Shown: one piece after another, positions 20,159-31,019 of the stretch | Layout: every line of letters begins with the position of its first letter | Position numbering within the stretch: position 1 is the first letter of the stretch | From: Pseudoalteromonas translucida KMM 520 | GTDB lineage: Bacteria; Pseudomonadota; Gammaproteobacteria; Enterobacterales; Alteromonadaceae | Assembly (NCBI RefSeq): GCF_001465295.1 | Contig: NZ_CP011034.1 | Location: 2,400,001 to 2,432,000 of the forward strand | Direction of reading: 5' to 3' | DNA: 32,000 nt | Position numbers and translations under genes: made by a program | The notes under the pieces: generated by a model | Seen by the model: the letters and a program-made list of their open reading frames with translations, nothing else | Databases searched by the model: none | Told to the model about the DNA's origin: nothing

Positions 20159-22345
20159 TTACAGCTCAAAGTCTTTTTTGAACTTTAAACCAAATTCACT
20201 GCGGTCATTACTGCGCATAACGCCAACAAAACCAGTTTGTTGTAAGCGTCCTACATCGTACACTTCGTTTAATACGTTTTCACCATATAGCGTTACTTCC
20301 ATATCGCCGTACGGGTTAGTGTAAGAAATATTAAAGCCAACTAACTCACGAGAATCAATTGTTTCGCTGTAGTTAAATACTGACTGACCTTGCATTTCAC
20401 TACGATACGAGTAGTTTGCATTAAAAGCCAGAGTGCCACCGTTATTTAAATCCATAAAATATGAAGGCGCAATCATCACAGTCCAGCGTGGTGTTAATGC
20501 AGGCGAATCGCCTTTACCAATTCCTTGAACGCCTGCTGCTACTTCACTAATTTCTGAATCTAAGTAACCCACTGCACTGCGAATAGTAAAGTCATCAGTA
20601 ATAGCTACTGTTGTTTCAAGCTCAATACCTTGTGCTTTTGATTGACCAGCATTTTCAACGATAGTTACAAAACCACCGCCCGAAGTAGGATCTGAAAATG
20701 GCAGCGCTAAATCTGTGTAGTCAGTTACAAATACGGCCAACATCATAGATACATTTTCGTGTACTTGGCCTTTTAAGCCAATTTCGTAGTTAATTGCTTT
20801 TGTTTCATCAAATGATGAAAACTGATCAGGGCCGCCAAATGGACGCGGTGGGAAGCCGCCTGTTTGGTAACCTTTTTGAACTTGACCATACACATTCATA
20901 TTATTACTAAGCTGGTACGAAGCATTTATATCCCACGTCACAGCATCAAAGTCTGCAGATACATATTTACGTTCGGCAAAAGATGGAAAAATTGCATTCG
21001 CTTCTTTTTTATCTTTTGAGTAGCGCAGGCCACCACCAACGCTTAAGTCGTCGGTTAAATCGTAGCTGGCATTAAAGTAAGCAGCATAAGAGTTAGTTTC
21101 TTGATTTATTTCGAAGAAGCCAAAACTGTCTGGCGTATTATATGGGCTAAATACAAAGTCTTCTGAGCGGGTAAAACCATCTTCATTAAAGAAGTACAAG
21201 CCAGATACGAAGTCCATGTTGTCATACGTTGCGTTTAACTGAACTTCAAATGAGTATTGATCAGCACCACCTTGCTCTGGAAACTCAGATAAATTAAGCG
21301 CTGATGCATCATCATCTAAACCGCCTTCATATTCAGAGGTACGGTAGCTTGAGATAAATTTACTTGAATAAGTGTCGTTAATTGCCCAATCAGCAGCAAA
21401 TGAAGTACCCCAACCTGAGTAAGAAGTTGATTCAATACCAGCAACGGTTGTGCCTAAATCATCTGGATTTACCGGAATTAAGTCTGGTGTTAATAATGGG
21501 AAGTCGCCATTGTTCTCATCATTTGGGTCAAGTGGTGCGGTAAGCTCAATAGTATAAGGCGATTGACCCGATTCGTTATCAACGCCATCTAAAGAAAAAG
21601 TAAATGCAAGGTCGCTCGTTGCTTGGTATTTAAATGCAACACGGCCACTAAACTCTTGCTCTTCACCAATTTCTTTTTCTGGGTTAGCTAAATTAACCGC
21701 AGTACCTACCCCATCACGCTGCTTGTACGACGCACTTGCTGACATACTTAAGTCATCAGTTAATGCGTTATTAAAGTAAATATCGCCTGCTATACGACCG
21801 CGGCTACCCACTTTTGCAGTCGTTGTTAAAATGCCTTCATCACCTGGCTGTTTGGTTATTACATTAACCGCGCCACCTAAAGTATTACGGCCATATAAAG
21901 TACCTTGAGGGCCACGCAGTACTTCTACACGCTCAACATTCGGTAGCGATAAATTTGACCCCATTTGACGGCCTAAGTACACACCATCTAAGTAAACCCC
22001 AACACCAGGATCGGTAGTAATAACATGATCTTGAAGGCCTATACCGCGAATAAACACAGATGCATGCGCAGAGTTACCCACGCCATAGCGAGTAATATTT
22101 AAATTGGGTACATATTTACCAATATCTTCTAAATTACTCATATTGGCTTTATCAATAAGGTTTGCACCAATTGATGTAATTGCGGTTGGAGACTCAAATA
22201 AACTTTCTGTACGTTTACGAGCGGTTACTTCTATTTTTTCAAACGCGTCTTGCTTTGCTGTTGTTTTGGTTTCTTCTGCATTTACTGAAGTAGTGAGTGC
22301 AGCAAAAATTGCTAAGCTTAACGGTGAGAGGTTGCGTAATTTCAA
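20159..22345 (-). CDS. TonB-dependent outer-membrane receptor
   Basis: 728 aa. The signal peptide is MKLRNLSPLSLAIFAALTTSVNA. The plug region is IEVTARKRTESLFESPTAITSI..VEVLRGPQGTLYGRNTLGGAVNVI, followed by a long beta-barrel with alternating pattern. The start is TTG with GGAG 8 nt upstream. Confidence 0.85.
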   Translation of the reverse strand: MKLRNLSPLSLAIFAALTTSVNAEETKTTAKQDAFEKIEVTARKRTESLFESPTAITSIGANLIDKANMSNLEDIGKYVPNLNITRYGVGNSAHASVFIRGIGLQDHVITTDPGVGVYLDGVYLGRQMGSNLSLPNVERVEVLRGPQGTLYGRNTLGGAVNVITKQPGDEGILTTTAKVGSRGRIAGDIYFNNALTDDLSMSASASYKQRDGVGTAVNLANPEKEIGEEQEFSGRVAFKYQATSDLAFTFSLDGVDNESGQSPYTIELTAPLDPNDENNGDFPLLTPDLIPVNPDDLGTTVAGIESTSYSGWGTSFAADWAINDTYSSKFISSYRTSEYEGGLDDDASALNLSEFPEQGGADQYSFEVQLNATYDNMDFVSGLYFFNEDGFTRSEDFVFSPYNTPDSFGFFEINQETNSYAAYFNASYDLTDDLSVGGGLRYSKDKKEANAIFPSFAERKYVSADFDAVTWDINASYQLSNNMNVYGQVQKGYQTGGFPPRPFGGPDQFSSFDETKAINYEIGLKGQVHENVSMMLAVFVTDYTDLALPFSDPTSGGGFVTIVENAGQSKAQGIELETTVAITDDFTIRSAVGYLDSEISEVAAGVQGIGKGDSPALTPRWTVMIAPSYFMDLNNGGTLAFNANYSYRSEMQGQSVFNYSETIDSRELVGFNISYTNPYGDMEVTLYGENVLNEVYDVGRLQQTGFVGVMRSNDRSEFGLKFKKDFEL

Positions 22346-22451
22346 AAATAATCTCCAAAGGGTATAGGTTTTGTTATGCGTTATATTTTTATAAAATATA
22401 AATTGTAGGCATAAAAAAAGATGCGTTGTAGCATCTTTCCTCTGGATGTAA

Positions 22452-22488
22452 ATTATATGATATAAACACGATGATATGTATCATTTTC
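22452..22488 (-). promoter_or_regulatory. Candidate Fur-box overlapping a promoter with a perfect TATAAT -10, upstream of the TonB-dependent receptor
   Basis: On the minus strand, GAAAATGATACATATCATC (22488..22470) matches GATAATGATAATCATTATC at 14 of 19 positions. TATAAT lies at 22457..22452. Confidence 0.35.
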
Positions 22489-22729
22489 TAATATTTTATT
22501 AATAAAAATCCTGCTGCGCCGCAACTTCTCGCTAAAATTATTCAGTAAAACGCCATTCACCTTAAATTTTTAAATGAAGAGGTAAATAAATCCACAGACT
22601 CTATTGCATATACTACAATTAAAGGAATCTATTTAAGTTAAATAACAAACGACTTGTACATTATTCCACCATTTATATTAACTGAACTTAGGAATATAGT
22701 ATTAATACATAAGTATATGGAATAAATTA

Positions 22730-23320
22730 ATGGCAATTGAAAATATAACGAATAAACAGACAAAGTGTTTAAATACTTCCGGGTATACTTCTTTATTTTG
22801 TGTAGCAACACAATACAATATATTGCTGGTAAATTATCAAGCACTTAACGTTATCACTAACTATGAACTAATTAATCAGTTTATGTTAAAAAATGAGCAC
22901 CAAGGGCTTGTTATATTTGATGTACCTAAAGACAGTGATGTTATTCCATTAAAAGAATGGCCTAATTTAAAAGGCTTATTTTATGCTAATACAGACGAAG
23001 CTCTTTTTCACCAAGGGTTAGAAGCGATTAATAAGGGAGAACTTTGGTTTCCTCGCGCGGTTACCGATTGTTGGATGAGGCAAATGCTGGCTAGCGAGCA
23101 ACAAACAACTCTGCAGTCGAATAATCTTACCTGTAAAGAAATTAAAGTTTTAAACTTACTGTTTTCAGGAATGCACTCCAGTGCTATTGCCGATAGCCTG
23201 TTTATCAGCGAAGCAACTGTGCGAGTTCATTTACATAAGGTGTATCAAAAAATCGCCGTTAAAAATAAACAGCAAGCACTTGCATGGTGTCAAAAAAACT
23301 TAAACAAAGTTAATAGTTAA
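22730..23320 (+). CDS. CsgD/VpsT-family LuxR-type transcriptional regulator (degenerate receiver-like N-domain plus HTH)
   Basis: The C-terminal HTH LFISEATVRVHLHKVYQKIAVKNKQQALAW closely resembles CsgD (LFISENTVKTHLYNLFKKIAVKNRTQAVSW). WPNLKGLFY resembles CsgD WPHINGVFY. The start codon is uncertain. Confidence 0.8.
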   Translation: MAIENITNKQTKCLNTSGYTSLFCVATQYNILLVNYQALNVITNYELINQFMLKNEHQGLVIFDVPKDSDVIPLKEWPNLKGLFYANTDEALFHQGLEAINKGELWFPRAVTDCWMRQMLASEQQTTLQSNNLTCKEIKVLNLLFSGMHSSAIADSLFISEATVRVHLHKVYQKIAVKNKQQALAWCQKNLNKVNS

Positions 23321-24161
23321 GCGGGCTAATTTGAAACCTTATAGTATCTGAATACTCACCTGCAGCTTGCTCTTGAAAATCAGCTAACTGTATTTTAAGT
23401 GGCAATAAAAACACAGTTTGCCCAGCGTATGAAAACGTTTTATTTGTATCTTGACCCAATCCTAACCAATTACCCGCTAAATCTAAATTATAATCTATCG
23501 CATATTGTTGCTGGTACATACTGTGCACTAACTTACCTTTATTATCAGAGCTAACACGCAGCTGAATATCTGAATTAGTCACTACTTGCAGGCTAGGCAA
23601 CATAGCGTATTCTTGCAGAGGTATTAATTCTCCTAAGTTAATGGTATTTGCAAAAGTATTATAACCAAGCACCGACAGGCTGGTTCTTGGGGCAATATCT
23701 GTTTCAATATCAAGTTGACGTTCATCGAGCAGCTGATTATTTTGATCATAAAGTTTTATTTGCAGCCTATCTGTGTATAACCCTGCTTTTACCGGTGTAC
23801 CCGATGGGATCAAAAGCTCAACTTCAGCCGCCGACTCTACAAGTTGTAAACGACTAATTGATGAGCTGACTAACTGCTGAGTATCACTGCGAAATTGATA
23901 AGCAATACTTTGAAAAGCGCCTCTTAACTGCGCTTGGTTTTCACTGGTTAATATTATATGCAGCTGGCACTGCTCGTCATTTATTACATTAATGCGCAGC
24001 TGCTTTTTTGCATCTACTTTTTGTAATGCATGGTACTGATCAAAGTCATCAAATAAGTGGTCAATATTATCTAACCTTGCATTACACTGTGCATAGCTAA
24101 TATGAGGTAAAAGCAATAAAGCAAAGCCGCTAATAAAGGTAACCATTTTTTTAGTGTACAT
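23310..24161 (-). CDS. Two-domain SCPU-type pilus tip/adhesin-like subunit (CsuE/CupE6 position)
   Basis: The signal peptide is MYTKKMVTFISGFALLLLPHISYA. I chose the start at 24161, which has AAGGA 7 nt upstream. There are two SCPU-like C-terminal motifs, AGLYTDRLQIKL in the middle of the protein and AGEYSDTIRFQI at the C-terminus. It is the last gene of the operon, after the usher. Confidence 0.65.
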   Translation of the reverse strand: MYTKKMVTFISGFALLLLPHISYAQCNARLDNIDHLFDDFDQYHALQKVDAKKQLRINVINDEQCQLHIILTSENQAQLRGAFQSIAYQFRSDTQQLVSSSISRLQLVESAAEVELLIPSGTPVKAGLYTDRLQIKLYDQNNQLLDERQLDIETDIAPRTSLSVLGYNTFANTINLGELIPLQEYAMLPSLQVVTNSDIQLRVSSDNKGKLVHSMYQQQYAIDYNLDLAGNWLGLGQDTNKTFSYAGQTVFLLPLKIQLADFQEQAAGEYSDTIRFQISPLNY

Positions 24162-26556
24162 AAATATTTCCTTTTCTTTGTAGTTGCTCACCTTCTTTTA
24201 CATCTAAAATAAATTGCGATTTTTCGCTATTATTTAATTTAACTTCGTAACTACAAGGTATAAGCCCAGTTAGTGCAAAACGACCCGATTTATTAGTAAA
24301 AAACTTATGCTCTTTATTACTTTTATCGCTAGAACAAATAGCAACGCCAACTTGTAAAGCTAATGGCTGCTGTTGTTGGTCAAGTAAAGTAGCGATTACT
24401 GAAATATTAGCATCCGTGCCAATCATTACATTATGGCCACTTTTATAGGATGGAAAAAGCACGATGAGCCCCGACCCAAGGTCATATCCTGGAGCCAAAT
24501 TATCTATTTCTACTGATACTGATGAGCTAGTATAAGAATTAACATCACTTAGTAAAATAGTGTCAAAATCGGCGTTATTTGCCCTATATTGCTTTTTGTT
24601 TTTATCTAATGTAACTATGTTATTCTTTAGACTTGAGTGTGCGCTCACTACTGCAAAACTATCACTGATAGGCTTACCGATTGCCCACTCAGTTTCAGCA
24701 AAAGCTAAACTGGAGGCAAAACTAACCCTACTTTGGTGCGAAGCCGAATTACTATCTAACTGTTCAAATGCACTAACGTGATCCATACTGACTAAAAAGC
24801 GATTCGCGCTGTATTGGGTGTTTAAATCAAGTAAAGCGTCATTCTCATCATTATTTTCAATTCCGGCTCTAAAACTAAATGCGCCTACATAACGTTGATT
24901 AGCATCTTGCGTGTACTCTAAGCGAGTTTTACTTCGCCTTGACTCGTGAGAGAGCTGACCTCTGCGAGAATTAGTAAATTTATAAAATAAAGACAACCGT
25001 ACTCCCCAGTCATTTTTCTCAGCTATCTCATCCCATTGAACTCCAACGTTATAACGCCAGTCACTATCATTTAAATTACCTGTAAAATTAACACCTGCAG
25101 ATTTGTTAAAATAACTTTGTTCATACTCTCTGGATAAACTAGCAAAAAAGCTGGCTTGGACTGAAGGGCTATACACAAAGCTATAATTTGCCTGCATTTG
25201 ATGCTGCAGCTGAACGTTATTTTGCGAATCGGGCCGATACCCGAGCGTACGAAAATTTACCGAGCTGTACTCATAACCTACGCTAAAATCTTGTTGTAAG
25301 ACACTACTGTCATTAAAGCTACTATAAACTAACCGGTAAGCATGGCCCGTATGCTCACCAAAACTGATTGCATTTTCAAATGCAATTTGCCCTATGTTAG
25401 CGGCATAAATACTTTTAAAGCCTATTTGCTGTATTAGTTTATCTGCTTGGGCTGTAAAGCCAGTGGTCCAACTTGGCGACATACCATAATTAATATAACT
25501 GCTCATAAGTGGGTAGTCATTATTATATTCTAGTTGCTCTCTTAATTGCGCGGGTATACCTAAGTGAACTTCGTATTCTAATTGGCCTTGTGCAAATAAA
25601 TCTAAACCGGTTGTCACATCAAAATTAACATAACGCACCACTCCTGCAATATCAGTTATTTTTAGGGTAATGTTGTTGCTCCCTTCGCTTAAAGGTATGT
25701 CAGCTAATGAATAGATACCTGCCGTTAAATTTAGCCTCCGTATTATTCTATTCTCTACTAGTACTTCCACTGAGGATGGGCTTTCTAAGGTAAAACTTTT
25801 TGAGGCACTCGGTCGAATAGGCCTGTCAGAAACCAACGAAAAGTCATGAGCAAGTGAAACCCCTAAAAAGCGTGATGTAGATTGAAAATAACTTCCTGTA
25901 CTATAGTTATCACCTACTGAAACGCGCATACCTTGAAGGGGTAAATCATGTACTAACCGCGTACCTAAACGTTTAACGTTTGATGAAGAAGGTGATATAT
26001 CTGATAAATACTCCAACTCGTTTTCTATTACCCACCCGCGCCAGTTCATTACCATTTCAGTACGCGTCGCTAATTGCTTTTTTACCGTATCTTTACTGTT
26101 ATTTTGTTGATATAAATAGCTAGAGTATAAATTTATAAAGCCACTTAAATTAGCCACGTCTGATGCCTGAAGTCGCCTAAAATTAGACTGTAATGTTAAT
26201 GTTTGCGGGCGAGTTAAGTTAAGAGGGGCAATTATTTTCAAGCTGAAATCACTTAAATCAAAATTAAAAACAAAACCAAACGTCTCTAGCGCCTCTTGGC
26301 TTAGCGACCCCTTAGTCACTTTTTCTGCAAGTGTTGTAAAACCTTCTGGATACAACAAGCCCTTAAATACAGCTTCAACGTCTTCCCATTTAAGTAATAA
26401 GTTATCATTCGGCTCAACAACTAATGTTACTTTACCTATCGCAGTTTTATTTAACTCGGCTTCAATACTCAGCTCAATAGCTTGATTGGTTGGGTTTATT
26501 TTTGCATCGCAAGTATATGAAAAGACAATAAGGAAAAAGCCGAAAAATAAGCGCAT
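24151..26556 (-). CDS. Fimbrial outer-membrane usher (archaic/sigma type)
   Basis: 801 aa with the signal peptide MRLFFGFFLIVFSYTCDA. It has beta-barrel-like alternating sequence throughout. It lies directly downstream of the chaperones (2-nt spacing) and upstream of the tip subunit. Its size and position match CsuD/CupE5. Confidence 0.75.
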   Translation of the reverse strand: MRLFFGFFLIVFSYTCDAKINPTNQAIELSIEAELNKTAIGKVTLVVEPNDNLLLKWEDVEAVFKGLLYPEGFTTLAEKVTKGSLSQEALETFGFVFNFDLSDFSLKIIAPLNLTRPQTLTLQSNFRRLQASDVANLSGFINLYSSYLYQQNNSKDTVKKQLATRTEMVMNWRGWVIENELEYLSDISPSSSNVKRLGTRLVHDLPLQGMRVSVGDNYSTGSYFQSTSRFLGVSLAHDFSLVSDRPIRPSASKSFTLESPSSVEVLVENRIIRRLNLTAGIYSLADIPLSEGSNNITLKITDIAGVVRYVNFDVTTGLDLFAQGQLEYEVHLGIPAQLREQLEYNNDYPLMSSYINYGMSPSWTTGFTAQADKLIQQIGFKSIYAANIGQIAFENAISFGEHTGHAYRLVYSSFNDSSVLQQDFSVGYEYSSVNFRTLGYRPDSQNNVQLQHQMQANYSFVYSPSVQASFFASLSREYEQSYFNKSAGVNFTGNLNDSDWRYNVGVQWDEIAEKNDWGVRLSLFYKFTNSRRGQLSHESRRSKTRLEYTQDANQRYVGAFSFRAGIENNDENDALLDLNTQYSANRFLVSMDHVSAFEQLDSNSASHQSRVSFASSLAFAETEWAIGKPISDSFAVVSAHSSLKNNIVTLDKNKKQYRANNADFDTILLSDVNSYTSSSVSVEIDNLAPGYDLGSGLIVLFPSYKSGHNVMIGTDANISVIATLLDQQQQPLALQVGVAICSSDKSNKEHKFFTNKSGRFALTGLIPCSYEVKLNNSEKSQFILDVKEGEQLQRKGNIYVH

Positions 26557-26558
26557 AT

Positions 26559-27302
26559 CTACTCAACCAACTCTAAGTGCAGCTGCTTCAAACTGCCCTT
26601 ACTTATTGTATTTGGTAGCGGTAATTTTATATGGCTGAGACTGTTTGGTGCGAAAAAAACATCGTATCCTTGTGCTTTTAATTGCTGTTTAAGAATACGC
26701 TGTAGCAACACTCCACTATTAACATTAGTTAACTTTAGTTCGTAGTCGCTTAATCGGCTAGCTCCCGCTCCTATATTATGAATATTAGCTGTAATATTAG
26801 CCCCCTCAATTGAAAGAGGCCCCACCATTAAACTTGGCCGGAGTTTAGGTTGGTCAACATGTACAACTAAGTTAAAATTTAATAGTAATCTTAGTTTTGA
26901 GCTGTTACTAGTAAGGTGAGTAGCTATCGGTTGTTCAACTAAGCTAACCTGATAGCTTTTATCTGTGCCTGGCAGTGCTTTTGCAAGCCATTTAAATTGT
27001 AATCGTTGTGCCTGCCCAGGCTTTAAATACAAGGACGGAGGAAAAACCCATAATGGCGATTCAGTTAGCGCTACTAACTGCGGCTCTTGGGTAATGTTTT
27101 GCTCGCTAAATTGAATTTCAAAAATTTGGATATCAAATGCAATATCACGAGGTAAATCATTATGTACTAAACTACTGGTACTGTTCCCCCCTTTATTAAG
27201 TGAAAAAGTGACCACCATAGGTGTTATTTCAATTGCGTACGCAAATCCCGCTAACATAAACCAAGTGCATACTGAAAAGCTTAAAAAAAATAGCTTACTC
27301 AT
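26559..27302 (-). CDS. Periplasmic pilus chaperone, PapD-like (archaic CsuC type), copy 2
   Basis: 247 aa with a signal peptide. Several segments are collinear with my recollection of CsuC: IEITPMVV, DIQIFEIQF, VFPPSLYLKPGQAQRLQFKW, KSYQVSLVEQPI and LRLLLNFNLVVHV. Confidence 0.7.
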   Translation of the reverse strand: MSKLFFLSFSVCTWFMLAGFAYAIEITPMVVTFSLNKGGNSTSSLVHNDLPRDIAFDIQIFEIQFSEQNITQEPQLVALTESPLWVFPPSLYLKPGQAQRLQFKWLAKALPGTDKSYQVSLVEQPIATHLTSNSSKLRLLLNFNLVVHVDQPKLRPSLMVGPLSIEGANITANIHNIGAGASRLSDYELKLTNVNSGVLLQRILKQQLKAQGYDVFFAPNSLSHIKLPLPNTISKGSLKQLHLELVE

Positions 27303-28000
27303 TCCTGCACCACTGTTAATTGACTTAGTTGCGGGTTAAATTGTGCAGGCATTTTTAGCATCACTTCACGGCTAGAATGAGGTAATAAAAACTTACTTGA
27401 TAATGCATCTTTCAACTCAGTCTCTTTTAAAACTAACTTGTCATTTGGTCCTTCAATTATCCACTGGGTTTTTGTTAGGCGAATATACTTGTTGCCGGTA
27501 TTTTCTAACTTTACCTTCCATACACCATCTGCAGCTTGCTGTTTACTTTTAATAACTAACTGTGCTTGGGCTTTGCTTGGAACTACATTATAAAGAGTTT
27601 GAAAAACATAACCTACTCCTATCGATGGCTGGCTCCTTCCAGTGAAATCAACAGCAAGCTGCTTTACCTCAATCCGATACGATTTAGATGCCATTAACAT
27701 AGGTTCACCAATATACTTTACAATAACGGCCTGACTGTCCCCTGGTGCTAAAGTTGCTGTCAGTGGTATAATTAAAAAATCCTTGTCATTAACAAGTAAC
27801 TCTTCTTTGCCCTGTGAGTTTATTAATAAATCAAAGCTGGCAATTGCAACCGACAATGGTTGCTCTGTGGTATTGGTCACGCGCAATATTAGTTGAGAGC
27901 TCCTACCTAATGGTTGCAAATCGGCCACCATAGGTTCAATTCTGAATGCAAAAGTTAAGTGAGAAATAAATAGTGCTATAATAAGGATAGACGCTCTCAT
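27299..28000 (-). CDS. Periplasmic pilus chaperone, PapD-like (archaic type), copy 1
   Basis: 233 aa with a signal peptide. It has the motifs FRIEPMVADL, IIPLTATLAPGDSQAVIVKY and KSYRIEVKQLAV (CsuC has SYRLIVDELP), plus a second Ig-like lobe. Its stop overlaps the start of copy 2 in ATGA. Confidence 0.65.
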   Translation of the reverse strand: MRASILIIALFISHLTFAFRIEPMVADLQPLGRSSQLILRVTNTTEQPLSVAIASFDLLINSQGKEELLVNDKDFLIIPLTATLAPGDSQAVIVKYIGEPMLMASKSYRIEVKQLAVDFTGRSQPSIGVGYVFQTLYNVVPSKAQAQLVIKSKQQAADGVWKVKLENTGNKYIRLTKTQWIIEGPNDKLVLKETELKDALSSKFLLPHSSREVMLKMPAQFNPQLSQLTVVQE

Positions 28001-28025
28001 TGGTGGTCCCTCTTTTCTAACCTTT

Positions 28026-28052
28026 AAAATAAAAGGCAGCTTAAGCTGCCTT
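28026..28052 (-). terminator. Intra-operon rho-independent terminator/attenuator after the putative major pilin gene
   Basis: On the minus strand, AAGGCAGC-TTAA-GCTGCCTT is followed by TTTTATTTT. It lies in the 68-nt gap between the 170-aa subunit gene and chaperone 1. Confidence 0.65.
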
Positions 28053-28068
28053 GTTGTTTATTACATAA

Positions 28069-28581
28069 CTACATAGCAGTAATAGTTAGTAATAAATTAT
28101 CTTCATAGTTCCCAGCCATCGTATTACCGTAGCCGCCAGTAAGAGAAACTGTAAGAGTTGCAGCAGAGCCATCAGCTATCTCTGCAGAGCTTGTCAAGGC
28201 TTGTGTGTTTATAGTAGGTTTAGCTGTGTTATTTGCATTCATTACTAGTTCCCAACCACTAATTGCGTCTGCAATTTCCAGTTTCGCTGTATATTTAACG
28301 CCATATGCAGCATTTGCTTGATTTTCTAACCAGCCATTAGACGATTTTAATTTAATCTCGGCATCATTAGCGCTATTACATTCCACGGTGAAACCAAGAG
28401 CGATAGGAGTAGAGCTTGTTGGATTTTTTATTGCTGCCTCAGTAAATTCAAAGTCGCCTGAAATTCCAGATGCTTCACAAACAACTGCCACCTCTCCACC
28501 AGGTGAAAAATCATGACTAGTTGCTAATGCTGAACCTGATGATAATACTGCTATTGCTGATAATACGATTAACTTTTTCAT
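28069..28581 (-). CDS. SCPU-domain pilin, putative major subunit (CsuA/B-like)
   Basis: The signal peptide is MKKLIVLSAIAVLSSGSALA. There is a Cys pair (VVCEASG..FTVECNS). The C-terminal motif AGNYEDNLLLTITAM resembles CsuA/B GDYKDTLLVTVNF. A good AAGGAA RBS lies upstream and a terminator follows. Confidence 0.7.
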   Translation of the reverse strand: MKKLIVLSAIAVLSSGSALATSHDFSPGGEVAVVCEASGISGDFEFTEAAIKNPTSSTPIALGFTVECNSANDAEIKLKSSNGWLENQANAAYGVKYTAKLEIADAISGWELVMNANNTAKPTINTQALTSSAEIADGSAATLTVSLTGGYGNTMAGNYEDNLLLTITAM

Positions 28582-28623
28582 TGTTATATTCCTTTTCCAT
28601 GTGATATATGTTTAATAAATGTT

Positions 28624-29094
28624 TTACCGCACACCACCAGAGACAACAGATGGCGTCATTTCTATGCGAATAACATCCCGGTATTCTCCTGCATAAATTA
28701 AAGGATCAACTAGCTCAAGTTGTAATTTGGCTATGCTATTAAATAGAATTTTATTAATGTTAAATGCCTGTGACACTTTTAATGTCTGTGCTGACACAGA
28801 TAAACTTTGATTAGCATCCGCAATTGACAAGTTAACATTATAAGCATTTAAGTGAGTACTTTGCTGGTGGCGTAAACCGCCGTTTTCTGACAGCATTGAT
28901 ACTCGCATAGGTGAATTGCAATTTATCACCAGCTCTGTATTAGCGAAGCCTTCTGAAGAAAAAGTTAAATTATTATTGTCTGTCGTAAACTCACATTTAG
29001 GCGAAATATACCCAACTAAAGTTAGAGCCACTTCATCGTTGCTATACGCATTAAATGCAAGGCAACACAATAAATAACTTATATACTCTTTCAT
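28624..29094 (-). CDS. SCPU-domain minor pilin subunit (first gene of the operon)
   Basis: It has a signal peptide, a Cys pair (SPKCEFTT..LVINCNSP) and the C-terminal motif AGEYRDVIRIEMTP. Confidence 0.6.
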   Translation of the reverse strand: MKEYISYLLCCLAFNAYSNDEVALTLVGYISPKCEFTTDNNNLTFSSEGFANTELVINCNSPMRVSMLSENGGLRHQQSTHLNAYNVNLSIADANQSLSVSAQTLKVSQAFNINKILFNSIAKLQLELVDPLIYAGEYRDVIRIEMTPSVVSGGVR

Positions 29095-29813
29095 CCGTAC
29101 TGAATCCTTTTAAGCAACCTCACTAACACGCTTCTAATCCTAAGGTATAATTTCAGTTTAGCGTGTTGCTATTTGCTTAAGGAAACCGTAATACAATGCA
29201 AAAATATCCTTTCACTGCTTAATTAAAATAAACATATTATCTAAACAATTACTAAGTTAGTACAAAACTAAAAATACCGCCAACACCTGCTTAACTTGGG
29301 ATTAAAGCCATTTAGTGTTTATAAAATGTAAAATAAAACGATAAATAACGTATAAACAAAAGTTGAGTTACAAGCCGATCTTTGATCCCATTAGTAAACT
29401 GAACATAATTAAACAAATAAGTCTGTTCTATCTCTTTTTTAAGTCTTTGACGTGTATGTTGCCGTATACGCAGCTTTAACCAGTAAAATATAACACTAAA
29501 ACTATGCTTCAAAAGCTAAAAACCCTCGGCTAAATATACGGCTGATTAATTAACTCTAGTATCATAGCCACCAAGGTTTGTTTAGACTCTCTGCACAGGC
29601 ATTTCAGTACAATTGACTTCCCTACCTCAAATGGTCGATGTTCACTTAAGCGCAATAGGCGTTAATGCAGCTAAGGCATGCTCTATTTTATTAATCATAA
29701 TGCGTCAGGCTAACATCAAAAATAAATACGTTTTTAAACGCTGCTGCATTAGCGCTATGCCGTAAATTAACCCTATAAGTGCTTTTGCACTTCAAAATAA
29801 AAAAGGAATAATC

Positions 29814-31019
29814 ATGCGCGAAGCAGTTATAGTTTCTACCGCCAGAACGCCTATGGGCAAAGCCTTTCGTGGTGCCTTTAACGATACCGAAGCGCCTGCA
29901 TTATCAGGTCATGCGGTTGAGCAAGCCGTTAAACGCGCGGGTATTGATGGTGCAGAAGTTGATGATGTGATCATTGGTTGTGCAGCGCAGCAAGGTACTC
30001 AAGGCTATAACTTGGGCCGTTTAACGGCGACCGCTGCAGGTCTGCCTAATAGCGTGCCGGGTATGACCCTTGACCGTCAGTGTTCGTCTGGATTAATGAG
30101 TATAGGTTTTGCGGCGCAAAATATTATGCTTGGTTCAATGGATATTGTGGTTGCCGGTGGCGTTGAATCTATTTCTATGGTGCAAAACAAACACAAAAAT
30201 ACTTATCGTAATATTTCTAAAAAAGTACTGTCGCATTCAGAGCATGCCTATATGCAGATGATCGAAACCGCAGAAGTTGTTGCAAAACGCTACAACATTT
30301 CACGTTTAGCACAAGATGAGTACAGCTTACAGTCTCAGCTGCGTATTGCAGCGGCGCAAAAAAATAATCTGTTTGATAATGAAATTGTGCCAATGGCATC
30401 CACCAAATCAGTATTTAACCGCGAAACCAAAGAGGTAACCTTTGAGGACGTATTGCTAGCTAAAGATGAAGGTAACCGCCCTTCTACAACTCTCGAGAGC
30501 CTACAAAGCTTAGAGCCGGTTTGGAAAGATGGTCGCGTTATTTCACAAGGTGAATTTATTACAGCAGGTAATGCAAGTCAGTTATCTGATGGCGCGTCTG
30601 CTTGTGTGGTAATGGACTCACAATTAGCGGCGCAAAAAGGCTTAGCGCCAATGGGGGTGTTTCGTGGTATGGCGGTTGCAGGTTGCGAGCCCGATGAAAT
30701 GGGTATTGGCCCTGTGTATGCTATTCCTAAGCTATTAAAACAACATGGTTTATCAATTGATGATATTGGTTTATGGGAAATTAACGAAGCATTTGCGTGT
30801 CAGCTTATTTATTCGCGCGACTACCTCGGTATTGATAACAATAAACTTAACGTTAATGGCGGCGCTATCGCCATTGGTCATCCCTTTGGTATGAGTGGCG
30901 CACGTATGGTGGGCCATGCCCTTATTGAAGGCAAGCGTCGCGGTGTTAAATATGTTGTGGTGAGCATGTGTATTGGTGGTGGCATGGGTGCGGCAGGCTT
31001 ATTTGAGGTGTGCCTGTAA
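29814..31019 (+). CDS. Acetyl-CoA C-acyltransferase / thiolase
   Basis: 401 aa. The thiolase signatures are present: LDRQCSSGL (nucleophilic Cys), [22 protein letters not shown] and [13 protein letters not shown]. Confidence 0.9.

Follow-up and report, generated by a model that had tools for sequence, protein, structure and literature searches.

Why should a single outer-membrane usher be served by two periplasmic chaperones that have little sequence in common? The question is raised by a six-gene chaperone-usher operon of Pseudoalteromonas translucida KMM 520, which lies in the window analysed here, a stretch of 32,000 nucleotides (nt) comprising positions 2,400,001–2,432,000 of contig NZ_CP011034.1 (assembly GCF_001465295.1). 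The answer that we favour, and hold to be probable rather than secure, is that the locus encodes an archaic pilus (sigma in the broad sense) with a dedicated CsgD/VpsT-like regulator, and that labour is divided in it between two ancient chaperone lineages.

The six genes occupy positions 23310–29094 of the window on the minus strand and form one operon, with all open reading frames found at the positions and with the sizes given in the first-pass annotation. In the order of transcription they encode a 156-amino-acid (aa) pilin with a signal peptide (sub1, 28624–29094), a 170-aa pilin with a strong signal peptide (sub2, 28069–28581), a 233-aa periplasmic chaperone of the non-classical, CsuC/CfaA-like type (ChapA, 27299–28000), a second chaperone of 247 aa that is a paralogue of the former (ChapB, 26559–27302), the 801-aa usher, which is the outer-membrane assembly pore (24151–26556), and a 283-aa two-domain protein, tip (23310–24161). 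The start of tip is ATG 24161, preceded by a AAAGGAAA ribosome-binding site; the longest open reading frame for this gene, from GTG 24191, would give 293 aa. The two pilin genes are separated by 42 nt and sub2 is separated from chapA by 68 nt. Translation of chapB is coupled to that of chapA by an ATGA overlap at 27299–27302, the TAG of chapB is followed after 2 nt by the ATG of the usher gene, and the usher and tip genes overlap by 11 nt. The junctions on both sides of chapB are as had been described, and the signal peptides noted for all six proteins agree with a charged–hydrophobic–AxA-like pattern visible by eye at each N-terminus. The arrangement is not due to chance, since the identical six genes occur in the identical order in 34 other genomes.

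ChapA and ChapB are genuine chaperone-usher chaperones of the non-classical type. Both had been expected to match the PapD-like profiles of Pfam, and neither matches PapD_N or PapD_C at E ≤ 1. This is a problem of profile sensitivity and does not speak against the fold, as PapD_N matches 39 of 45 wider relatives of ChapB and the fold itself is unambiguous; PF00345 (PapD_N) is also recorded for the chaperone relatives P0014, P0031 and P0032. When the window proteins were scanned directly with Pfam and NCBIfam, significant matches were limited to the usher and the regulator, and phmmer searches of the PDB with the single sequences of the usher and the two chaperones returned nothing useful. The ChapA family profile has one significant match among PDB sequences, CsuC (E 2.3e-4), and the ChapB family profile matched no chaperone in the PDB, so the homology of ChapB had to be followed through hhalign with ChapA, through its wider relatives and through structure. 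Aligned by hhalign, the ChapA family (A1) and the ChapB family (A2) match over 223 columns with a probability of 98.4% and E 8e-15. The two proteins are full-length paralogues, 21% identical over ~218 residues (pairwise BLASTP), which agrees fairly with the earlier impression that they share little beyond the family motifs. An exhaustive profile search with ChapB yields only five cluster representatives at E ≤ 1e-30 and then a long tail. The profile of the wider ChapB relatives (A7) recovers CsuC at 5.8e-12, CfaA at 3e-8 and EcpB at 1e-6, with classical chaperones at E > 0.1, and the classical chaperone FimC scores 0.6 and 1.6 bits with profiles A1 and A2.

The two-lobe, Ig-like fold proposed for both proteins is evident in their AlphaFold2 models (pLDDT 89.6 for ChapA and 80.5 for ChapB), which match chaperone-usher chaperones in Foldseek searches of the PDB. 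The best matches are CfaA (2.4e-12) and CsuC (2.3e-11) for ChapA, and CfaA (2.3e-7) and CsuC (3.3e-7) for ChapB, with a probability of 1.00 in both cases. Chaperone-usher chaperones account for 49 of the best 50 PDB matches of the ChapA model, and the match from outside these systems is one low-ranked WxLIP entry for each model. ChapB is 100% identical to a protein of P. translucida and is a “hypothetical protein” in most public records.

The presence of two chaperones is a clade-specific, stably inherited trait that is not common among archaic loci. A usher-based scan of one genome per species gave 54 loci, over all open reading frames of which hidden Markov models of each protein family were run. 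All complete loci with an usher score of at least ~467 bits, 34 of 34 in addition to the window, have these six genes in this order, with the chaperones in tandem. They belong to eight groups: Pseudoalteromonas, Marinomonas, an Oceanospirillaceae metagenome-assembled genome (MAG), Vibrio, Enterovibrio, Shewanella, Photobacterium and Granulosicoccaceae. None of the 17 more distant loci with a complete chaperone, which come from cyanobacteria, alphaproteobacteria, Bacteriovorax, an Aerophobetes MAG and three Vibrio species, has a second one; each has one. A second scan, seeded on CsuC, gave 80 Csu-like metagenome loci (L058–L137), including true csu operons at 94–98% identity, and the 71 of these that include the usher carry exactly one chaperone each. 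It is the contrast of 34/34 related loci with 0/17 distant and 0/71 Csu-like ones that marks the trait as stable and confined to the clade, and it upholds the earlier statement that the Csu and CupE archetypes have a single chaperone where this locus has two. Purifying selection acts on the two chaperone genes about as strongly as on the usher gene, with dN/dS of ~0.05–0.19 in unsaturated pairs (0.08–0.19 for chapB). In the Granulosicoccaceae MAG (L033) the gene order is rearranged, with a sub1-like gene downstream of the usher/tip region (11883–12413 in L033) and a 623-nt gap between sub2 and chapA.

In archaic and alternate systems, the C-terminal carboxylate of the subunit is anchored on a “super-conserved” arginine of the chaperone, Arg89 in CsuC, assisted by the domain-2 residues Tyr196 and Arg174; the capture of subunits by CsuC requires Arg89 and is impaired in the R89A variant (PMC4654587). 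The corresponding residues of ChapA and ChapB were located by profile alignment to CsuC and by hhalign of both families. The invariant Pro59 in strand D1 of CsuC is P79 in ChapA and P88 in ChapB, and this proline is kept in 87 of the 87 chaperones aligned. The equivalent of Arg174 is R174 in ChapA and R183 in ChapB, and the hydrophobic G1 donor residues are I127, V129, Y131 and F133, in alternating positions, in the former and L-L-L-F in the latter. At the position of Arg89, ChapA has R109, located in an S-Y-R motif that aligns with S-Y-R89 of CsuC, and ChapB has Q118 and no arginine. This difference extends throughout the clade: the anchor arginine is present in ChapA of 32 of the 35 loci (Ser in L020, L022 and L028) and in ChapB of none (Gln in 16, Phe in 14, Met in two, Ile in two and Tyr in one), while the G1 donor-strand hydrophobic residues and the invariant proline of ChapB are found in all 35. 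In ChapB of the Vibrio/Enterovibrio group, the R174 equivalent is also replaced, by Phe or Tyr. Among the single chaperones of relatives the arginine is present in 12 of 17, the alphaproteobacterial ones having Phe or Ile, and both Ecp chaperones, EcpB and EcpE, keep it.

The C-termini of the subunits vary along with the chaperones. Tail length was counted in residues after the Tyr of the G-x-Y-x-D motif, with a proline at Y+10 denoted Pro10. Csu-like subunits, tips included (34 distinct loci, in which the chaperone always has the arginine), end at exactly Y+10 in 93 of 99 cases, and none of the 99 has Pro10; the last residue is mostly aromatic (F, W or Y, almost always so in the loci examined). 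In the two-chaperone clade, sub2 ends close to this position (Y+11 in 33 loci, Y+12 in two) and has Pro10 in none of 35, whereas sub1 extends to between Y+14 and Y+18 with Pro10 in 35 of 35, and tip to between Y+13 and Y+17 with Pro10 in 30 of 31. In the window the tails are Y+18 for sub1, Y+11 for sub2 and Y+13 for tip. The arginine-less alphaproteobacterial loci with a single chaperone have tails of mostly Y+11 to Y+12 and Pro10 in nine of ten subunits; the tails of arginine-type single-chaperone relatives are of mostly the same length, with Pro10 in three of 23. Pro10-type C-termini thus co-vary with the arginine-less chaperone lineage, and it is this co-variation that leads to the proposed division of labour.

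Several side observations touch on the same positions. The Y+10 end of the Csu-like tails (L058–L137) is a stricter C-terminal rule than expected, and could serve as an annotation signature for the Csu-like subgroup. In an Oceanospirillaceae MAG and two Shewanella loci (L020, L022, L028) neither chaperone has the arginine, yet the sub2 tail is short and canonical. In the alphaproteobacterial loci L035, L038, L040 and L051 the sole chaperone has Phe or Ile at the anchor position and nearly all subunits are of the Pro10 type. A whole sub-branch of archaic systems seems, from these residue patterns, to work without the published anchor. The notion that loss of the arginine means loss of chaperone function was rejected, as several intact loci have no chaperone other than an arginine-less one.

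The three subunits contain the C-terminal A-G-x-Y-x-D motif of the SCPU type that had been noted in them (AGEYRDVIRIEM, AGNYEDNLLLTI and AGEYSDTIRFQI), and G-x-Y-x-D is invariant inside each subunit family. A Cys pair had been attributed to two of the three; in the family alignments the pair is invariant in all of them (C34/C59 in sub1, C35/C68 in sub2, and C26/C65 in tip, where it is located in the N-terminal domain). The sub1 protein has an N-terminal donor-strand-like segment, EVALTLVGYI, and its C-terminal G-x-Y-x-D is followed by the proline at Y+10 and an 8-residue tail (TPSVVSGGVR). Residues G28, C34, C59, N60, G136, Y138, D140 and P148 are invariant in its family alignment (A4, 17 sequences), and strong sub1 matches (≥155 bits) among the survey loci are confined to two-chaperone loci. 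The sub2 protein, with its short, near-canonical C-terminus and no Pro10, is probably the main fibre subunit; its family profile (alignment A5) matches CsuA/B nearly over the full length, with E 0.07. Both pilins have an alternating hydrophobic N-terminal segment ahead of the first Cys, which fits donor strands and polymerisation. The mature tip protein begins at Cys26 and for this reason lacks an N-terminal donor strand, as expected of a distal tip subunit; its gene lies after that of the usher, as does that of CsuE, and in its C-terminal pilin domain G-x-Y-x-D is followed by the proline at Y+10 and a 3-residue tail (SPLNY).

SCPU is the sole recurring Pfam family among the subunit families, and its matches are weak. 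Residues 199–275 of tip match SCPU (PF05229) with 20.0 bits, under the cut-off of 22.4, and neither sub1 nor sub2 of the window matches any Pfam family, SCPU included. Weak SCPU matches are present in six of 18 members of the sub2 family and SCPU matches in nine of 17 members of the tip family (best E 7e-5), and none of the 17 members of the sub1 family has a Pfam match. The subunits of cyanobacterial relatives are likewise sub-threshold for SCPU, and the sub1 and tip family profiles gave insignificant matches only against the PDB.

The usher was identified as such by Pfam Usher (PF00577), which matches residues 167–696 with 66.5 bits at a cut-off of 27.1, and its sequence is that of PTRA_a2573 from P. 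translucida KMM 520 (100% identity). With the profile of the window usher family, CsuD scores 66–71 bits, FimD 34.5 and EcpC −0.8, and the loci of its own branch all reach at least 252; with the CsuD-like usher profile, by contrast, FimD comes out higher (125.7 bits) than the window usher (80.9 bits). In a joint neighbour-joining tree, with FimD and EcpC as the only outgroups, the window branch and the Csu-like branch are separate, each at 100%. The Csu-like ushers, including those of L058–L062, which are linked to CsuC at 94–98%, are monophyletic in 100 of 100 bootstraps to the exclusion of the window branch. Deeper in the tree, FimD and EcpC are placed in three different ways relative to the two branches, at 43, 48 and 9 of 100. 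The window branch also holds cyanobacterial, alphaproteobacterial and Bacteriovorax loci, and in these groups only archaic systems have been reported (PMC4654587), among them the cyanobacterial SCPU/PapD_N/usher clusters (PMC4390875). The Vibrio vulnificus operon VV1_2740–2744 is said in PMC13348674 to lie in the sigma clade of Nuccio and Baumler. We assign the locus to the archaic family in the broad sense, on account of the CsuC-like chaperones, the SCPU-type motif, the Csu-like gene order, the membership of this usher branch and the sigma placement stated for the V. vulnificus operon, but not to the Csu/CupE subgroup, because its usher lies in a separate deep branch outside the Csu-like ushers. 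The assignment to the archaic sigma clade of Csu and CupE rather than to the classical systems therefore holds in its broad form and fails in the narrow, Csu/CupE-like sense.

The two chaperones may not be the products of a local tandem duplication. In a neighbour-joining tree of 87 very divergent chaperones with 100 bootstraps, ChapB is monophyletic in 84 and ChapA in 59, and the two subtrees have the same internal order of genera; they are sisters in none of the 100. ChapB falls together with the single chaperones found in five alphaproteobacterial loci (65/100) and ChapA with a different set of single-chaperone loci. The ushers of two-chaperone loci form a clade (47/60), which is weakly sister to the same alphaproteobacterial ushers (29/60) and never to the other group. 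Because ChapA and ChapB are never sisters and have different relatives, their lineages probably separated before the two-chaperone operon arose, a provisional view drawn from these trees. The pair could have originated in an older duplication with differential loss, or one chaperone could have been acquired from another archaic locus. Of the suggestion in the first-pass annotation of an old and maintained duplication, the age and the maintenance are supported by a divergent pair kept in 34 of 34 loci under purifying selection, while the duplication may not have been a local tandem event. Another view considered, in which a “sub2 + ChapA” module and a “sub1 + ChapB + usher” module had been joined to give the operon, was rejected as stated, for the alphaproteobacterial single-chaperone loci already carry both pilin types.

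A mechanism can be proposed from these features. By homology with Csu, the pilins would cross the inner membrane via the Sec pathway, after which a periplasmic chaperone would take each of them by donor-strand complementation and hand it to the usher. The tip, having no N-terminal donor strand, would enter the usher first, and sub1 and sub2 would polymerise below it by donor-strand exchange. ChapA, with its Arg109 anchor, would serve sub2, the C-terminus of which is at a near-canonical position. ChapB, which retains the fold, the proline and the G1 donor strand and lacks the arginine, would serve sub1 and tip. In these two subunits there would be no free carboxylate at the anchor site, since the chain runs past strand F with the proline and 3–8 further residues. 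A hairpin that follows sub2 would keep the pilin transcripts in excess of those of the assembly machinery.

Several points weigh against this division of labour or against the placement of the system. The proposed pairing of ChapA with sub2 and of ChapB with sub1 and tip is drawn from features that vary together in related loci, and such loci do not count as independent. There are exceptions to it: ChapA is of the Ser type in L020, L022 and L028, and L046 has an arginine chaperone together with Pro10 subunits. One arginine-less chaperone serves both sub1-like and sub2-like pilins in alphaproteobacteria, so two may not be a strict requirement. The SCPU matches are sub-threshold and absent altogether for sub1, and the usher bootstraps are split over the sigma placement (43, 48 and 9 of 100). 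The chaperone trees are neighbour-joining trees of very divergent sequences with moderate support (59–84%), and a promoter scan gave matches no more frequent than in shuffled sequence, none of them convincing.

An extension of the proposal, which we hold only tentatively, is that ChapB and its alphaproteobacterial relatives would constitute an unrecognised class of chaperones that capture subunits without a carboxylate anchor, their clients being marked by the proline at Y+10 and by a tail passing through the inter-domain cleft or beyond it. The carboxylate anchor has been treated as universal, with Arg/Lys in classical systems and Arg89 in archaic and alternate ones. If the extension is correct, one operon would contain two recognition modes that sort subunits between two chaperones feeding one usher, and the extra tails of sub1 and tip could add a structural element to the assembled fibre.

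Other explanations assign ChapB a different part. It may be dedicated to the tip adhesin only, for instance in a chaperone–adhesin complex that activates the usher, with ChapA handling both rod pilins; the position of chapB directly upstream of the usher gene at a 2-nt distance, the Pro10 tail of tip in 30 of 31 loci and the second chaperone of CupB, proposed to act with an adhesin and activate the usher (PMC3031594), are in line with this. We consider it unlikely, however, as sub1 has the same signature of Pro10 and tail in an even stricter form (35/35), strong sub1 matches are confined to two-chaperone loci, and a single chaperone in Csu also handles the tip protein CsuE (PDB code 6fjy). Redundancy of the chaperones, kept for dosage or robustness with a neutral loss of the arginine, is quite improbable: the two proteins are only 21% identical, the arginine was never regained by ChapB in 35 lineages and was kept by ChapA in 32 of 35, and both genes are retained without exception in eight marine gammaproteobacterial groups with a dN/dS of ~0.1–0.2, where redundant copies would normally be lost. 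What speaks for it is that the arginine is not indispensable in this branch, functional-looking single-chaperone loci (L035, L038, L040, L051) and ChapA itself in three loci doing without it.

The lack of the arginine, together with that of the R174 equivalent in the Vibrio/Enterovibrio group and of a Pfam PapD match, would also suit a ChapB that is no longer an assembly chaperone but a periplasmic regulator or capping factor, which sequesters subunits or blocks the usher and so controls the number or length of pili. Such a role is most improbable for a protein that keeps the G1 hydrophobic residues and the invariant proline in 35 of 35 loci, is translationally coupled and encoded between chapA and the usher, and has as its closest relatives the sole chaperones of alphaproteobacterial loci, which are necessarily assembly-competent. 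A further alternative concerns the system as a whole, which might be a member, or a nearer relative, of the alternate (alpha; CFA/I- or Ecp-like) family rather than of the archaic one. CfaA is the best Foldseek match of both chaperones, there are weak matches of sub1 to CblA (E 0.007), of the usher to the E-set domain of TcfC (E 0.003) and of the tip profile to CfaB (E 0.01), a pair of chaperones and a regulator of the LuxR type are found in Ecp as well, and the window branch joins EcpC in 48 of 100 bootstraps of the joint usher tree. We nevertheless regard this placement as very improbable, since the usher profile gives EcpC −0.8 bits against 66–71 for CsuD, the chaperone sequence profiles favour CsuC over CfaA and EcpB, the gene order is Csu-like and not chaperone-first, the subunits have the SCPU-type motif, and relatives exist in cyanobacteria and alphaproteobacteria, where alternate systems have not been reported.

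The closest known archetypes are Csu of Acinetobacter baumannii (CsuA/B-A-B-C-D-E) and CupE of Pseudomonas aeruginosa, which like the window locus consist of pilins, a chaperone, an usher and a two-domain tip. The Csu pilins have the same Cys pair and C-terminal G-x-Y-x-D motif of strand F, ChapA resembles CsuC in the invariant proline, the Arg89-type anchor, the R174 equivalent and the shifted hydrophobic G1 donor strand, and CsuC is the best match among PDB sequences. Unlike the window locus, Csu has only one chaperone, and Csu-like subunits nearly all end at Y+10, whereas here sub2 ends at Y+11 and sub1 and tip are extended; the window usher lies in a separate deep branch and the SCPU scores of the window are sub-threshold.

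Two chaperones in one chaperone-usher operon are already known from Ecp (alternate) and CupB (classical), which limits the surprise, and are also found in CupA, CupD, Ycb/Elf of Escherichia coli and Stb of Salmonella. The Ecp system of E. coli (EcpR-A-B-C-D-E) is likewise non-classical: besides one usher, a single major pilin and a single tip adhesin it has two chaperones, EcpB and EcpE, which are ~30% identical, and a LuxR-type regulator adjoins its operon, as here. Both Ecp chaperones have the anchor arginine, which ChapB lacks; they are encoded apart, EcpB before the usher and EcpE after the tip, and not in tandem; EcpC is unrelated at the profile level (−0.8 bits), and the Ecp pilins are not SCPU-like. 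The alternate family (Ecp/CFA-I) as a whole is not matched, as the gene order differs and the chaperone profiles prefer CsuC (the usher compared was EcpC). The classical families (beta, gamma, kappa, pi) are not matched either, FimC scoring 0.6/1.6 bits and FimD 34.5 bits against at least 252 in the branch. In the classical CupB system of P. aeruginosa, different and non-redundant clients have been proposed for the two chaperones (CupB2 and CupB4, 32% identical). CupB differs from the window system in having an Arg/Lys anchor in domain 1, a TpsA-like passenger and a P-usher, and no sequence relationship is detectable beyond the fold. Its second chaperone shows no standard binding of subunit C-terminal peptides (PMC3031594).

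Closer to the window in usher phylogeny are the cyanobacterial clusters of the CccS/CccP/Slr0019 type, which contain two pilins, a single chaperone and an usher of the same branch. According to PMC13348674, the V. vulnificus operon encodes a LuxR protein, an unknown protein, a chaperone, an usher and a subunit, the same set of genes as in the Vibrio loci with a single chaperone in that branch (L048, L049, L054), and it is by gene content alone that it is linked to loci of the L048 type. No archaic two-chaperone system has been described in the literature covered, which did not include the sigma operon diagrams of Nuccio and Baumler, nor does this literature describe an arginine-less lineage of non-classical chaperones or a chaperone-usher pilus in Pseudoalteromonas.

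Between the pilin genes and the assembly genes, at 28024–28052 on the minus strand, lies an intrinsic-terminator-like hairpin (AAGGCAGC-TTAA-GCTGCCTT, then TTATTTT). The hairpin proper (28033–28052, followed by the T-run) is the top-ranked terminator-like site in 22300–29900, and its stem is present in the minimum-free-energy fold; the 75-nt fold as such is not exceptional against shuffled sequences (z = −1.18; 20 of 200 at least as stable). At least 18 of the 34 two-chaperone loci have a hairpin and T-run at the equivalent position, the stem sequences differing between genera, which suggests a conserved attenuator, and the element in the window is probably one that sets the ratio of pilins to machinery.

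A CsgD/VpsT-like regulator of the LuxR family (196 aa) is encoded at 22730–23320 on the plus strand, convergent with the operon. It contains a GerE helix-turn-helix (E 5.6e-16) and a VpsT-like receiver domain (E 1e-5), and matches the CsgD model with E 2.8e-32. It is kept in the same position in 20 related loci (L001–L019, including the truncated L012) with 160–364 bits, and so throughout the Pseudoalteromonas and Marinomonas loci, and weaker LuxR neighbours are present in Shewanella, Vibrio and Photobacterium loci. It is probably the regulator dedicated to the pilus operon. The 3' ends of tip (minus strand) and of the regulator gene (plus strand) overlap by 11 nt (23310–23320), so that the two transcripts would be mutually antisense there, and the tight convergence recurs in Pseudoalteromonas and Marinomonas loci. 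Of the VpsT and CsgD receiver profiles, the receiver-like domain aligns with no more than the C-terminal two thirds. Residues W106-F107-P108-R109 (window 23045–23056) read W-F-P-R, with Pro in place of the Thr/Ser of W[F/L/M][T/S]R, the c-di-GMP-binding motif that VpsT has at this site.

The regulator gene is flanked by a gene for a 728-aa protein (20159–22345, minus strand), TonB-dependent receptor-like by sequence, and a protein that shares its C-terminus (…RSEFGLKFKKDFEL) is encoded at the same position in the Pseudoalteromonas loci L001, L004, L007, L014, L017 and L018. This shared neighbour indicates a stable chromosomal neighbourhood, unlike that of a mobile island. The lowest G+C content of the window, 31%, is that of 22001–23000, which covers the intergenic region upstream of the regulator and the 5' part of its gene.

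Archaic pili are the most widespread class of chaperone-usher adhesins, yet are understood almost wholly through Csu and CupE, where one chaperone holds the carboxylate of each subunit on Arg89. The marine clade described here pairs a chaperone that keeps this rule with one that breaks it, and provides a natural experiment on how chaperones select their clients, on whether the carboxylate anchor is obligatory and on how one usher takes cargo from two chaperones. The locus corrects the annotation of a protein labelled “hypothetical”, which is the second chaperone, and yields a specific, testable hypothesis on how chaperones choose their client subunits. The pili are candidate factors for surface attachment and biofilm formation in marine bacteria that are abundant and include relatives of pathogens of fish and shellfish.

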